The notes beneath the pieces were generated by a model. It made no database searches. It was not told where the DNA came from and worked only from the letters and a program-made list of their open reading frames with translations. Made by a program: the position numbers and the translations under genes. Of a stretch of 64,000 nt of DNA, positions 5,490 to 12,085 are shown in pieces. The DNA is from Escherichia coli. GTDB lineage: Bacteria; Pseudomonadota; Gammaproteobacteria; Enterobacterales; Enterobacteriaceae. Numbering within the stretch: position 1 is the first letter of the stretch; every line of letters starts with the position of its first letter. Location: NCBI RefSeq assembly GCF_003334335.1, contig NZ_QOWQ01000008.1; one strand, written 5' to 3'.

Positions 5490-6302
5490 TTATTTTTTAG
5501 CAGAATCTGCGGCTTTCGCATCAGCTTCCGGCTTTGCATCAGCCTTCGGCGCTGGTTTCACATCCAGCAGCTCTACGTCAAACACCAGGGTAGAATTCGG
5601 TGGGATCCCCGGAACACCCGCTTTGCCGTAAGCCAGTTCTGGTGGAATAACCAGTTTGATCTTACCGCCTTTCTTGATGTTCTTCAGACCTTCTGTCCAA
5701 CCCGGGATAACACCGTCCAGACGGAAAGAAAGCGGTTCACCACGGGTGTAAGAGTTGTCGAACTCTTTACCGTCGATCAGCGTACCTTTGTAGTTCACTA
5801 CAACAGTATCGCTGTCTTTCGGTGCTTCGCCTTTACCGGCTTCTACTACCTGATAAACCAGACCAGTTGAAGAGGTTTTCACACCTTTCTCTTTGGCAAA
5901 TTTCTCGCGGTACTCTTTACCTTTTGCTTCGTTATCAGCCGCGTCTTTTTCCATCTTCGCCTGAGCAGAAGACTTCACGCGAGCTTCGAATGCTTGTAGA
6001 GTCTGTTCGATCTCTTGGTCGGAGAGTTTGCTCTTATCAGCAAATGCATCCTGAACACCAGCGATCAGCTGATCTTTATCCAGTTTGATGCCCAGTTTTT
6101 CTTGTTCTTTTAGAGAGTTTTCCATGTAACGACCCAGCGAGGCACCCAGTGCATAAGCTGATTTCTGATCGTCATTTTTGAACGCTGCTTTGCTGTCAGC
6201 AGCTGTAGCAGGTTTTGCAGCTTCAGCAGCAAAAGTGATTGGTGCATGCAGGGCAACGGCCATTGTGGTCGCCAGCAGCGTTACTTTAAACAGTGATTTC
6301 AT
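5490..6302 (-). CDS. fkpA: Periplasmic FKBP-type peptidyl-prolyl cis-trans isomerase
   Basis: 270-aa ORF with signal peptide MKSLFKVTLLATTMAVALHAPITFA and FKBP domain; Lys/Ala-rich C-terminus. Confidence 0.94.
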   Translation of the reverse strand: MKSLFKVTLLATTMAVALHAPITFAAEAAKPATAADSKAAFKNDDQKSAYALGASLGRYMENSLKEQEKLGIKLDKDQLIAGVQDAFADKSKLSDQEIEQTLQAFEARVKSSAQAKMEKDAADNEAKGKEYREKFAKEKGVKTSSTGLVYQVVEAGKGEAPKDSDTVVVNYKGTLIDGKEFDNSYTRGEPLSFRLDGVIPGWTEGLKNIKKGGKIKLVIPPELAYGKAGVPGIPPNSTLVFDVELLDVKPAPKADAKPEADAKAADSAKK

Positions 6303-6522
6303 CCATATCTCCAGGATCGGGGCATCTCACCCCAGGGTTAACTATTATCAGAAGGGTACTATAAAGCGTTGTCGAACAAATCTACATACAGACACGCCCT
6401 ATTATCATCTATTTTCAGACTCTTTTTGTTTAAATTAGTTTCGATGACCGCGAAATGAGTGCTGTCTCGGGCAGCAAAGTTAAGTAGAATCCGCGGCGAC
6501 CATTCGACAAAAGAGGTGAATC

Positions 6523-6741
6523 ATGCAGGATTTATCATTGGAAGCACGCCTGGCAGAGCTGGAGAGCCGACTGGCTTTTCAGGAAATCACCATTGAAGAA
6601 CTGAACGTCACGGTGACCGCTCATGAAATGGAGATGGCGAAACTGCGCGATCATCTGCGTCTGCTGACCGAGAAGTTAAAAGCCAGCCAGCCGTCGAACA
6701 TCGCGTCGCAGGCTGAAGAAACGCCACCGCCACATTATTGA
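6523..6741 (+). CDS. slyX: Small coiled-coil protein SlyX
   Basis: 72-aa [31 protein letters not shown]; convergent with slyD. Confidence 0.88.
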
Positions 6742-6745
6742 GGCG

Positions 6746-6776
6746 TAAAAAAAGCGGGGATTCCCCGCTTTTTTGT
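6746..6776. terminator. Bidirectional terminator between convergent slyX and slyD
   Basis: gcgggga tt ccccgc stem flanked by A-run (6747-6753) and T-run (6769-6775). Confidence 0.7.
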
Positions 6777-6789
6777 CACTTTTTCGGTA

Positions 6790-7380
6790 TTAGTGGCAAC
6801 CGCAACCGCCGTTGCCTTTACCGCCACAGCAGCCTTCGCCACCGTGTTCATGACCGTGATCGTGGCCATGACCGCCGCAGCAACCGTCGTGGTCGTGATC
6901 GTGGTGGTGATCGTGCGCGCCGTGAACGTGACCATGAGCCAGTTCTTCTTCAGTCGCTTCGCGAATCGCCACAACTTCAACGTTGAATTTCAGGTTCTGA
7001 CCGGCCAGCATGTGGTTACCATCAACCACGACGTGATCGTCTTCAACCGCAGTGATTTCAACCGGTACCGGACCCTGGTCGGTTTCAGCCAGGAAACGCA
7101 TACCTACCTGCAGTTCATCAACGCCCATAAATACGTCTTTAGGAACACGTTGCACCAGGTTTTCGTCGTACTGACCGTAAGCGTCGTTCGCGCCAACAGC
7201 GACATCAAATTTGTCGCCAACTTCATGACCTTCCAGCGCCGTTTCCAGGCCAGAGATCAGGGAACCGTGACCATGCAGGTAGTCCAGCGGCGCACTCACC
7301 GGAGACTCATCAACCAACACACCGTCTTCTGTACGTACCTGATAGGCCAGGCTGACCACCAGGTCTTTTGCTACTTTCAT
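6790..7380 (-). CDS. slyD: FKBP-type PPIase / metallochaperone SlyD
   Basis: 196-aa ORF MKVAKDLVVSLAYQVRTEDGVLVDESP with His/Cys/Gly-rich C-terminal tail (HGHVHGAHDHHHDHDHDGCCGGHGHDHGHEHGGEGCCGG). Confidence 0.95.
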   Translation of the reverse strand: MKVAKDLVVSLAYQVRTEDGVLVDESPVSAPLDYLHGHGSLISGLETALEGHEVGDKFDVAVGANDAYGQYDENLVQRVPKDVFMGVDELQVGMRFLAETDQGPVPVEITAVEDDHVVVDGNHMLAGQNLKFNVEVVAIREATEEELAHGHVHGAHDHHHDHDHDGCCGGHGHDHGHEHGGEGCCGGKGNGGCGCH

Positions 7381-7474
7381 GATATCTCCTGAGCATGGGA
7401 AGAATAGTGGCGCAGATTGTAGCGGAATTCTGCAGCCGTGTACTCACTAGCTTAAAAAAACTCGGCGCATATCG

Positions 7475-7675
7475 CTAGTCCGGATGAAAAATCCCGATCA
7501 CTTGCTCATCTTTGCGAACGTGATCGCGGGCTTCTTTGTCTGCTTCTCGCATCTGATGTCCGCACTTAACACATTCAACAATATCAATATTATTTTCGCG
7601 CCACATCGCCATTGAATCCTGCGCCTGACAGGCCGGGCATTTTGCGCCCGCAATAAAACGTTTTCGGATTGCCAT
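7475..7675 (-). CDS. yheV: Small zinc-ribbon-like protein YheV
   Basis: 66-aa ORF with two Cys pairs (CPAC ... CVKC) typical of a zinc ribbon. Confidence 0.8.
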   Translation of the reverse strand: MAIRKRFIAGAKCPACQAQDSMAMWRENNIDIVECVKCGHQMREADKEARDHVRKDEQVIGIFHPD

Positions 7676-7684
7676 CTTTACCCT

Positions 7685-9490
7685 CTACTCAAATTCATCC
7701 CAGCCGTCCAGCTGGCGTCGTTCTTGTTGCATTTCACGCTGGAAAATCTCTTCCAGTTCGCGTCGGGCTTCCCTGGCGCGAGAAATTTGTACGGTATCGG
7801 CATGCATTGGGATGAGCTCTCGCAGCATCCGCATATCCAGGCGGCGAAAATGCAGTTGCGCTCGCTGTGCCTGATGCGGATGCATGCCAAGCGTGACCAG
7901 CGTCTTGCGCCCCAGCTCTAACGCACTGGAGAATGTTTCACGGGAAAACTGCGTCACCCCTGCCTGTAATAACTCATGCGCTTCCACACGTCCGCGCGCT
8001 CGCGCAAGAATATGCAAATGCGGAAAGTGCTGTTGGCATATTTCCACCAGCTTCATGGTGTCTTCCGGCTCGTTACAGGTAATGACGATAGACTCAGCGG
8101 CCTCTGCACCCGCAGAACGTAAAAGATCGACCTGCGTGGCGTCGCCGTAATAAACTTTGTAGCCGTATTTACGCATCAGGTTAACGGCGCTGATATCCCG
8201 CTCCAGCACGGTAATGCGCATTTTATTTGCCATCAGCAAACGACCAATCACCTGACCAAAACGCCCGAAGCCCACGACAATGACCTGGGGTTTATCATCG
8301 TTGACCCACGGTTTTTCGTCTTCTTCTTCCGGTCCGTTAAACTGGCGGGATAGCCATTTATCCACCAGCTTCATCAGCAACGGCGTGGTCATCATGGAAA
8401 GCGTCACCGTCACCAGCAACAACGCCATCTGGTCGCCCTGGAATAAGCGTTGTGAAGAAGCGGTAGAAAAGAGGACAAAGGCAAACTCACCACCCTGACT
8501 CAACACGCCAGCAAACTGCATCCGCTCTGAGCTACGCACGCCATACAATCGCGCCAGCAGATACAGCACGAGAATTTTCACCGCCACCAGCACAACCACG
8601 CTTATCACTACCCACAACAGATGGGTATAAAGCACCCCGAGGTTGAGTGACATGCCGACAGAGATAAAGAACAAACCGAGCAGCAAGCCTTTGAAGGGAT
8701 CGATAGCCGTTTCCAGTTCATGGCGATATTCACTTTCCGCCAGCAGCACGCCCGCAATAAATGTACCGAGCGCCATCGACAGCCCCAGCGCATCCATAAA
8801 CAATGCGGAACCCAACACCAGCAGCAGCGTCGCGGCGGTGAACACTTCCCGCACGCCAGAAGCTGCAATAAAGCGGAATACCGGACGCAGTAAATAGCGC
8901 CCACCAATCAGCATGCCGACAAACGCCAGCACCTTCATGCCGACCTTCATCCAGTCGAAATGTTCGTCTGCCGACCCCGCCAACAACGGCACTAACGCCA
9001 GTGCTGGGATTACTGCCAGATCCTGAAACAGCAGAACCGAAAACCCGAGCTGGCCGGATTCGCTGCGATTCATCCCTTTCTCACGCATCAATTGCAACGC
9101 CATTGCAGTTGAAGACATCGCAAGGCCAATGCCACCGACCACCGCCGCCTGCCAGGCGAAATCCGTCAGCATCAATAATCCCGCCAGCAACGCCGCGCTT
9201 AACAGCACCTGTGCCGCGCCTACGCCAAAAATCGAACGCCGCAGTTGCCAAAGTTTGGAGGGATTCAACTCAAGGCCGATGATAAACATCAGGAATACCA
9301 CGCCGAGTTCCGAAAAGTGGAGGATCTCATCGACGTCGCTAATAAACCCCAGCCCCCACGGGCCAATTGCAATCCCTGCCAGCAAATATCCCAACACAGC
9401 GCCAATACCCAGCCGCGATGCCAGCGGCACCGCAGCCACCGCCGCGAAGAGAAACAGCACTCCTGCGAGTAAAAAATCGGAACCTTCCAT
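7685..9490 (-). CDS. kefB: Glutathione-regulated K+ efflux antiporter KefB
   Basis: 601-aa polytopic ORF with C-terminal KTN/Rossmann segment ([11 protein letters not shown]); overlaps kefG stop. Confidence 0.94.
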
Positions 9491-10044
9491 CAGCGGCCTC
9501 CTGGAGACAGCGGATTTGCCAGCCAGTCACCGTAGGCTCTGGCGTGGCTCGCCAGCTCCTGTGCGCTTTGCCGTCTCGCCCAGTAAATAATGATGGGACT
9601 TAACCAATGCATCCGGCACATGCCCGCCGCCAGTTCAAAGGGGCGCAGCACATCGCTCATCGGGTAGCGATTCAGCGCGTCATAACGGTAAGCACTTTCC
9701 GGCTCGCCGGTGGTAATCACGCTACGCCAGTACTTTCCCGCCAGTTGGTTTCCTCCCGGCCCGCTGGCAAAACCACGACTTAATACCCGGTCCAGCCACT
9801 CTTTCAGTAGCGCCGGGCAGCTATAGGTATAAAGAGGATGCTGAAAGACAATCACCTCGTGCTCGCGCAGTAATGCCTGCTCACGGGGGATATCAATAAA
9901 AAAATCGGGATAGTGCGCGTAAAGGTCGTGCACGGTAACATTGCTGAGCTGCGTGGCCGGTTTAAGCAGTACCCGGTTTGCCACCGAGTCCTGAGATTCC
10001 GGATGGGCATACAGCAGCAAAACTTTCGCTGGCTGAGACATCAT
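9490..10044 (-). CDS. kefG: KefB ancillary flavodoxin-like protein KefG
   Basis: 184-aa [29 protein letters not shown]; overlaps kefB start. Confidence 0.92.
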
Positions 10045-10171
10045 CCCCCTCCCGGTATGGTTTTTGTGTATAGTCGCTGTTTTGGGCTACCATTGCGCCC
10101 GGTGCGGCAGCTCGCCCATACATTACATTATCATAATGATAAGTTAACATAGTCTGAACATACGGCACCTT

Positions 10172-12085
10172 ATGATTGTTTTCTCCTCGTTACAAATTCG
10201 TCGCGGCGTGCGCGTCCTGCTGGATAATGCCACCGCCACCATCAACCCTGGGCAGAAAGTCGGCCTGGTGGGTAAAAACGGCTGTGGTAAATCTACCCTG
10301 CTGGCATTGCTGAAAAATGAAATCAGCGCCGACGGCGGCAGCTACACCTTTCCGGGAAGCTGGCAACTGGCGTGGGTGAATCAGGAAACGCCGGCGTTAC
10401 CGCAAGCGGCGCTGGAATATGTCATTGACGGCGACCGTGAATATCGTCAACTAGAAGCGCAGCTACACGACGCCAACGAACGTAACGACGGGCACGCCAT
10501 TGCGACCATTCATGGCAAGCTGGATGCTATTGACGCATGGAGTATTCGCTCCCGTGCTGCCAGCCTGCTGCACGGCCTCGGTTTCAGCAATGAACAACTG
10601 GAGCGCCCGGTAAGTGATTTTTCCGGGGGCTGGCGTATGCGTCTTAACCTTGCCCAGGCGCTGATTTGCCGTTCAGACTTGCTGCTGCTCGACGAACCGA
10701 CTAACCACCTCGATCTCGATGCCGTTATCTGGCTGGAAAAATGGCTGAAGAGCTATCAGGGCACGCTGATCCTGATCTCTCACGACCGCGACTTCCTCGA
10801 TCCGATCGTCGATAAAATTATTCATATCGAACAACAAAGCATGTTCGAGTACACCGGCAACTACAGTTCGTTTGAAGTACAGCGCGCCACCCGTCTGGCG
10901 CAGCAACAAGCGATGTACGAAAGCCAGCAGGAACGCGTAGCGCATCTGCAAAGTTATATCGACCGTTTCCGTGCCAAAGCCACCAAAGCGAAGCAGGCCC
11001 AGAGCCGCATTAAGATGCTCGAGCGTATGGAGCTAATTGCCCCCGCGCACGTCGACAACCCGTTCCGCTTTAGCTTCCGCGCGCCGGAAAGCCTGCCAAA
11101 TCCGTTACTGAAGATGGAAAAAGTCAGCGCGGGCTATGGCGATCGCATTATTCTCGACTCGATTAAACTGAACCTGGTGCCCGGCTCGCGTATTGGTCTG
11201 TTAGGCCGCAATGGCGCGGGTAAATCGACATTAATCAAACTGTTAGCCGGTGAACTTGCGCCAGTCAGCGGTGAAATTGGTCTGGCGAAAGGGATCAAAC
11301 TCGGCTACTTCGCCCAGCATCAACTTGAATACCTGCGCGCCGACGAATCACCTATTCAACATCTGGCACGTTTAGCGCCGCAGGAGCTGGAACAAAAACT
11401 GCGTGACTACCTCGGCGGCTTTGGTTTCCAGGGCGATAAAGTAACCGAAGAAACGCGCCGCTTCTCCGGTGGGGAAAAAGCCCGCCTGGTGCTGGCATTA
11501 ATTGTCTGGCAGCGGCCGAATCTGCTGCTGCTCGACGAACCGACTAACCACCTTGACCTCGACATGCGTCAGGCACTCACCGAAGCATTAATCGAGTTTG
11601 AAGGCGCGCTGGTTGTCGTTTCGCACGACCGTCATTTGCTGCGTTCCACCACTGACGATCTCTACCTGGTTCACGATCGTAAAGTCGAACCGTTCGACGG
11701 CGATCTGGAAGATTATCAACAGTGGTTGAGCGACGTACAAAAGCAGGAAAACCAGACCGACGAAGCGCCAAAAGAGAATGCGAACAGCGCCCAGGCACGT
11801 AAAGATCAGAAGCGTCGGGAAGCTGAGCTGCGTGCGCAAACCCAGCCACTGCGTAAAGAGATTGCCCGTCTGGAAAAAGAGATGGAGAAGCTGAACGCGC
11901 AACTGGCGCAGGCGGAAGAGAAACTCGGCGACAGCGAACTGTATGACCAGAGCCGTAAAGCGGAGTTGACCGCCTGCCTGCAACAGCAAGCCAGCGCCAA
12001 ATCCGGCCTGGAAGAGTGCGAAATGGCATGGCTGGAAGCCCAGGAGCAGCTTGAGCAGATGCTGCTGGAAGGCCAAAGCAACTGA
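10172..12085 (+). CDS. yheS: ABC-F family ATPase (two ABC cassettes, no TM domain)
   Basis: 637-aa ORF with two Walker A motifs (GKNGCGKST and GRNGAGKST), two LSGG signatures, charged coiled-coil C-terminus. Confidence 0.93.
   Translation: MIVFSSLQIRRGVRVLLDNATATINPGQKVGLVGKNGCGKSTLLALLKNEISADGGSYTFPGSWQLAWVNQETPALPQAALEYVIDGDREYRQLEAQLHDANERNDGHAIATIHGKLDAIDAWSIRSRAASLLHGLGFSNEQLERPVSDFSGGWRMRLNLAQALICRSDLLLLDEPTNHLDLDAVIWLEKWLKSYQGTLILISHDRDFLDPIVDKIIHIEQQSMFEYTGNYSSFEVQRATRLAQQQAMYESQQERVAHLQSYIDRFRAKATKAKQAQSRIKMLERMELIAPAHVDNPFRFSFRAPESLPNPLLKMEKVSAGYGDRIILDSIKLNLVPGSRIGLLGRNGAGKSTLIKLLAGELAPVSGEIGLAKGIKLGYFAQHQLEYLRADESPIQHLARLAPQELEQKLRDYLGGFGFQGDKVTEETRRFSGGEKARLVLALIVWQRPNLLLLDEPTNHLDLDMRQALTEALIEFEGALVVVSHDRHLLRSTTDDLYLVHDRKVEPFDGDLEDYQQWLSDVQKQENQTDEAPKENANSAQARKDQKRREAELRAQTQPLRKEIARLEKEMEKLNAQLAQAEEKLGDSELYDQSRKAELTACLQQQASAKSGLEECEMAWLEAQEQLEQMLLEGQSN

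Follow-up and report, generated by a model that had tools for sequence, protein, structure and literature searches.

The yheV gene and its family

The gene considered here, yheV, lies on the minus strand of a 64,000-nucleotide stretch of an Escherichia coli contig (NZ_QOWQ01000008.1), which we call the window. The list of open reading frames (ORFs) gives a coding sequence at 7475..7675 (-), made up of 66 codons and a TAG stop (7477-7475), and its product is the 66-aa protein MAIRKRFIAGAKCPACQAQDSMAMWRENNIDIVECVKCGHQMREADKEARDHVRKDEQVIGIFHPD. RefSeq annotates the gene as yheV (WP_001007730); the feature is an already annotated E. coli gene, and nothing is new in its identity. An initial annotation, made from the letters of the window, had named the gene and placed its 66-residue product between slyD (6790..7380 (-)) and kefB (7685..9490 (-)), and the ORF list and the RefSeq annotation agree with it in coordinates, name and neighbours. 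It had also pointed to two cysteine pairs, CPAC and CVKC, about 20 residues apart, which are indeed present with 18 residues in between. The parts of the protein are encoded as follows:

7544..7669 (-), zinc-ribbon core, residues 3-44, holding R-F-I-A-G-A (residues 6-11), CPAC (7639-7628) and CVKC (7573-7562)
7639-7637 and 7630-7628 (-), codons of C13 and C16 in CPAC
7573-7571 and 7564-7562 (-), codons of C35 and C38 in CVKC
7478..7543 (-), charged, probably flexible tail, residues 45-66, with an AlphaFold2 (AF2) predicted local distance difference test score (pLDDT) of 55-70, ending Q-V-I-G-I-F-H-P-D

YheV matches the NCBIfam family TIGR02443 with 107.4 bits (cut-off 49.45), covering profile positions 2-59 of 59, and the Pfam family DUF2387 (PF09526) with an E-value of 3.1e-19. 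It is the name-giving member of this family and shares its size, its four cysteines and RFIAGA, with no differences. The family pattern, C-P-x-C ... C-x-x-C preceded by R-F-I-A-G-A, is present in YheV, and in an alignment of 99 diverse members C13, C16, C35 and C38 are the only invariant positions, while at least 90% of the members keep R6, F7, I8, A9, G10, A11, P14 and D20. A 501-bp region containing yheV is found in 5426 out of 5426 complete E. coli genomes. Given this universal presence, the TIGR02443 and DUF2387 matches and the invariant cysteines, yheV is more than a chance ORF.

Among 1.84 billion representative proteins we find 296 clusters of the family, and the best 150 of the 296 representative matches are all short (44-130 aa) and free of fusions; a profile search of 90%-identity clusters returns more than 6600 members. 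Members with a named source come from Enterobacterales, Vibrionales, Alteromonadales and unclassified metagenome-assembled genomes of Gammaproteobacteria, with an annotated member in Acinetobacter, and the family is confined to Gammaproteobacteria. A 385-bp contig in a Desulfobulbus alkaliphilus assembly (L032) holds a yheV copy that shares 75% identity with the E. coli protein and resembles those of Erwinia/Pantoea; this contig is probably contamination and not a deltaproteobacterial family member. Conservation extends beyond the ribbon. Different clades share a C-terminal motif of the type [VI]-x-[VIFL]-[FIVL]-x-P, seen for instance as VIGIFKPE, VQFFPNPKLKKK and VRILDP, and a mid-tail E-L-x-T-R-V-N motif is found in many non-enteric clades.

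PHROG and PADLOC scans, which bear on an origin in phages or defence systems, turned up nothing beyond weak zinc-ribbon matches of a generic kind. The Lar-like restriction alleviation and ECs_2282-type CxxC proteins are likewise small bacterial or phage proteins with two zinc-binding knuckles, but the similarity is marginal, with all matches below family thresholds (PF14354, E 0.0012; PHROG 6422, E 0.002; NF047912, 20.6 bits), and YheV, unlike them, is encoded by a chromosomal core gene and not on a mobile element.

Predicted fold and charge

The AF2 model places residues 1-44 at pLDDT 89-95 and predicts strands at residues 5-7, 22-27, 30-35 and 41-43, forming an antiparallel beta-sheet with the two zinc knuckles at its ends. 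The solved structures in the PDB, searched by sequence and by profile, include no YheV homologue, and the closest folds among them are the ribbons of Elf1, TFIIS and Rpb9, all with weak scores. Profile and structure searches also return eIF2-beta, L44e and S27e among the weak matches. The family match, the invariant cysteines and the predicted fold thus support the zinc-ribbon part of the earlier reading, and YheV is best described as a putative C4 zinc-ribbon protein in which the four cysteines would bind zinc.

The same annotation had described basic flanks and judged these, together with the cysteine pairs, typical of a small zinc-ribbon protein that binds nucleic acid or is regulatory. The N-terminus is basic (+4 over residues 1-12), but the tail (residues 45-66) carries a charge of -2, as does the ribbon, so that the net charge is 0 and the isoelectric point (pI) 6.81. 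The family behaves alike: 188 unique members have a median pI of 7.0, just 23% of them lie above pI 8, and many relatives have frankly acidic tails. YheV therefore does not resemble a typical basic nucleic-acid binder, and lacks the net positive charge or basic surface of nucleic-acid-binding small zinc proteins; this part of the initial annotation finds no support. A nucleic-acid-binding or transcription-regulatory ribbon, for instance a module that binds RNA polymerase in the manner of TFIIS, Rpb9 or Elf1, is accordingly an unlikely identity for YheV. Its likeness to the C-terminal ribbons of TFIIS, Rpb9 and RPC10 and to the Elf1 ribbon is weak and generic. In contrast to these proteins, YheV is bacterial, has no known association with RNA polymerase, lacks the acidic hairpin loop of TFIIS and carries its own RFIAGA motif and flexible tail.

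Transcription in E. coli and gene neighbourhoods across lineages

In the window the minus strand reads kefG, kefB, yheV and slyD, with slyX, fkpA and yheS around them. The kefB stop (TAG, 7687-7685) is separated from the yheV ATG (7675-7673) by 9 nt. The neighbouring features are:

9490..10044 (-), kefG, and 7685..9490 (-), kefB, the upstream genes in the same transcription unit as yheV (ORFs and annotation)
7681..7686 (-), Shine-Dalgarno-like AGAGGG read from the sequence, which overlaps the kefB stop and ends 5 nt short of the yheV ATG
7381..7474 (-), yheV-slyD intergenic spacer of 94 nt with a U-run, folding z-score 0.36 against shuffles
10172..12085 (+), yheS, encoding an ABC-F ATPase (PRK10636, 1407 bits)

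In the literature the operon appears as kefGB-yheV and is described as ArcA-repressed (PMC3798270). Expression of yheV, the lack of which the initial annotation had named as grounds for dropping its reading, is documented by quantification of the protein in the E. coli proteome (PMC7157525). A terminator scan found no convincing intrinsic terminator on the minus strand of 7381..7474, and the RNA fold of this spacer is no better than that of shuffles; without a stable hairpin or terminator there, read-through into slyD is possible. An Rfam scan of 6300-10300 returned a single, sub-threshold match, to the Salmonella small RNA STnc40 (28.5 bits, gathering score 45; window 6747-6810 (-) and 6748-6774 (+)), which coincides with a terminator-like hairpin with a 12-bp stem between slyX and slyD. 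Inside yheV, in antisense, lies a sigma-70-like site (TTAACA-16-TATTAT, 10 of 12 matches, window 7566-7593 (+)). It is probably a chance occurrence, since shuffled sequence is expected to hold just as many sites of this kind as the region does.

Gene neighbourhoods were compared in two sets of loci. The first comprises 80 loci from GTDB species genomes, taken as best matches and so biased toward enterics; the second comprises 120 metagenomic loci found with a back-translated pattern, FIAGAxCPxC, and accepted in scan order. With targeted look-ups of distant members added, 210 loci carry a YheV ORF, and their products fall into 30 clusters at 60% identity. The genes upstream of yheV are distributed as follows:

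kefB, same strand: 64 loci, 2 YheV clusters, Enterobacterales only
prlC (oligopeptidase A), same strand: 41 loci, 12 YheV clusters
yheS, divergent: 38 loci, 2 YheV clusters
aroE, same strand and mostly overlapping: 18 loci, 7 YheV clusters
hexapeptide-repeat gene, divergent: 14 loci, 2 YheV clusters

The 99 informative loci of the 120 in the metagenome sample give 36 with prlC, 16 with aroE, 14 with yheS, 13 with the hexapeptide-repeat gene and 11 with kefB. In this sample 67 upstream genes are co-directional with yheV; 54 of them end within 30 nt of it and 36 overlap it. The pair prlC-yheV recurs, co-directional and closely spaced, across divergent lineages. The two genes overlap in 22 of their 41 loci, by exactly 4 nt in 19 of those 22, an overlap that agrees with the databases' own, independent gene calls, and the upstream product is identified as PrlC by 960 bits against PRK10911. 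The broadest operonic association of yheV is thus with prlC, and the second is with yheS and the slyX/fkpA/slyD chaperone cluster. In genomes of the Vibrionales/Alteromonadales type yheS adjoins yheV divergently; in E. coli kefGB separates the two.

These arrangements also occur combined, in the orders aroE-prlC-yheV, hexapeptide-repeat gene-prlC-yheV and aroE-hexapeptide-repeat gene-yheV. These composite orders suggest an ancestral block of tsaC, a gene for a protein of about 300 aa, aroE, the hexapeptide-repeat gene, prlC and yheV.

Three further genes recur in these neighbourhoods. In several Pseudomonas-like loci a second M3 peptidase paralogue, divergent in sequence, directly follows yheV, giving the order prlC-yheV-prlC2; it is 28-38% identical to PrlC and 668-690 aa long where complete (L104:2080-4152 (-), L134:1106-3115 (-), L138:734-2749 (+), L206:1636-3642 (-) and L216:1-684 (-)). 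Many non-enteric loci carry a convergent gene, here called unkA, for a protein of about 200-220 aa, which ends within a few nucleotides of the yheV 3' end or overlaps it. Two copies (L092:5204-5863 (-) and L095:5217-5837 (-)) are 24.6% identical (E 1.7e-8), and others lie in L099, L105, L125, L128, L140, L155, L177, L187, L188, L191, L194, L195, L205 and L207. The unkA product has no Pfam or NCBIfam match and therefore offers no functional clue for yheV. Lastly, Vibrionales/Alteromonadales-type loci hold a gene for a WD40 beta-propeller of about 330 aa between slyX and fkpA (L086:577-1575 (-), with equivalent positions in L100, L117, L120, L168, L183, L196 and L200), a position at which E. coli carries no gene.

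Candidate partners and the proposed role of YheV

Our tentative preference is for YheV as a zinc-ribbon adaptor or regulator that binds other proteins and serves protein turnover in the cytosol or translation quality control; PrlC is the foremost candidate for its partner. This proposal draws on the gene contexts, the RFIAGA surface, the hydrophobic end of the tail and the E-L-x-T-R-V-N motif; it is gene context and architecture that suggest both the protein-binding mode and the identity of the partner. YheV would be a small, expressed, cytoplasmic C4 zinc-ribbon protein, in which a rigid ribbon of about 44 residues may present a near-invariant R-F-I-A-G-A-x-C-P-x-C surface, followed by a flexible charged tail ending in a short, hydrophobic, strand-like motif. 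Such an architecture would be that of a protein-binding adaptor or regulator rather than of a basic nucleic-acid binder. In E. coli, yheV rides at the 3' end of the kefGB transcript with its own Shine-Dalgarno sequence, a linkage that is an enterobacterial novelty. Across Gammaproteobacteria it is typically the translationally coupled last gene behind prlC, and in the branch of Vibrionales, Alteromonadales and Enterobacterales its neighbours are the ABC-F gene yheS and three chaperone genes, slyX, fkpA and slyD. A role in protein turnover or translation quality control in the cytosol would thus be the most likely, and one in K+ efflux is unlikely.

A more specific form of this proposal, in which YheV serves the M3 oligopeptidase PrlC/OpdA as a dedicated partner, whether by regulating it, as an adaptor or by delivering substrates, and has been kept across Gammaproteobacteria and displaced to the kefGB-slyD position in enterobacteria, seems to us doubtful. 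Several observations weigh against PrlC as the partner. We modelled a PrlC-(GGGGS)6-YheV fusion from one locus (L082) with AF2, using an alignment of 76 rows (11 paired, 22 PrlC-only and 43 YheV-only). PrlC is modelled mostly above pLDDT 90 with a predicted template modelling score of 0.80, and YheV no better than alone (ribbon 71-85, tail 30-35). The model gave no PrlC-YheV docking signal, as judged with monomer weights, 11 paired rows and only pLDDT and DSSP, with no predicted aligned error; though a weak test, this outcome lowers confidence in a stable PrlC-YheV complex. Furthermore, where a lineage has no prlC adjacent, yheV still keeps its place beside aroE or the hexapeptide-repeat gene, so that inherited synteny, with no functional coupling, could account for the prlC linkage. 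The E. coli K-12 genome has prlC about 165 kb away from yheV, with rsmJ as the next gene. Published mentions of YheV are entries in high-throughput lists, and no PDB entry contains a YheV chain.

Separately from this weighing, we note that in K-12 (L217:6381-9183; 3642380-3645182) the slot after prlC, which holds yheV in most other Gammaproteobacteria, is occupied by rsmJ, the gene for the 16S rRNA m2G1516 methyltransferase, after a 7-nt gap. A literature search for yheV, DUF2387, b4551 and TIGR02443 found no functional study; beyond the operon and proteome reports, the remaining mentions are screen-list entries (MazF regulon, Keio curli, lux brightness and a sigma SELEX, systematic evolution of ligands by exponential enrichment). 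A search pairing 'oligopeptidase A' with 'zinc ribbon' found one co-occurrence paper, which is irrelevant.

A different partner is suggested by the second association. As a small zinc ribbon assisting translation, YheV might act together with YheS, the ABC-F ATPase, or with the ribosome. In the 38 Vibrionales/Alteromonadales-type loci yheS and yheV lie directly side by side in divergent orientation, with about 50-190 nt between them, and in Enterobacterales kefGB alone separates them. In one distant lineage (L093) yheS and yheV share a strand and overlap by 4 nt, and the product of this yheS is assigned to YheS with 797 bits against PRK10636, compared with at most 412 for other ABC-F paralogues. 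The genes near yheV further include tsaC, slyD and fkpA, and many small zinc ribbons are ribosomal or translation proteins, with eIF2-beta, L44e and S27e among the weak matches of YheV. However, the yheS linkage is found in only 3 out of 30 YheV clusters and may stem from a single ancestral juxtaposition, and divergent orientation is weaker evidence than co-transcription. A YheV chain is absent from all solved ribosome and YheS structures in the PDB, and the YheS papers that our literature search found do not overlap with those mentioning yheV. On balance we consider a role beside YheS or the ribosome improbable.

It is decidedly unlikely that YheV has no specific partner at all and serves to buffer or store metal as a small protein, or that its gene is a generic rider at the ends of operons. 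The gene does stand behind four unrelated upstream genes (prlC, aroE, yheS and kefB), and the short or overlapping gaps (54 of 67 co-directional gaps at 30 nt or less, 36 of them overlaps) suggest that expression is supplied by whichever gene lies upstream. Yet strong conservation extends to R-F-I-A-G-A, a surface motif without cysteine, and to the C-terminal motif, which favours a specific macromolecular contact over bare metal chelation.

Zinc-thiolate centres can react with electrophiles and oxidants, and one might take YheV for an accessory or regulatory subunit of the glutathione-gated K+ efflux system KefGB, possibly an electrophile sensor, an idea to which we give hardly any credence. 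In its favour, yheV is co-transcribed with kefGB in E. coli (PMC3798270), starts 9 nt after kefB and follows kefB in every Enterobacterales locus with a recovered upstream flank, much as the ancillary proteins KefG and KefF are encoded in one operon with a K+ efflux protein (KefB or KefC). But kefB adjoins yheV only in Enterobacterales (2 out of 30 clusters; 11 out of 99 informative loci from metagenomes), yheV persists in all other lineages with no kefGB in its vicinity, and no association with kefB or kefC is conserved across lineages. Moreover, KefG and KefF are flavodoxin-like proteins of about 180 residues to which YheV is unrelated in sequence and fold. The idea of a KefB accessory protein is rejected on this phylogenetic distribution, and with the kefB linkage being lineage-specific, a role of yheV in K+ efflux is unlikely.

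Every complete E. coli genome examined has yheV, which is among the core genes of the species still uncharacterised. What is new speaks against Kef and hints at PrlC and YheS: the kefB neighbourhood in E. coli is a lineage-specific accident, and the family-wide neighbours (oligopeptidase A, YheS and the peptidyl-prolyl isomerase chaperones) point to proteostasis or translation. The gain lies in redirecting experiments away from the kefB neighbourhood. Should YheV prove to be a dedicated partner of PrlC/OpdA, a new, small accessory component would be added to the degradation of peptides in the cytosol. Confirmation of a partner would overturn no current concept, and would give a function to a family of thousands of members.
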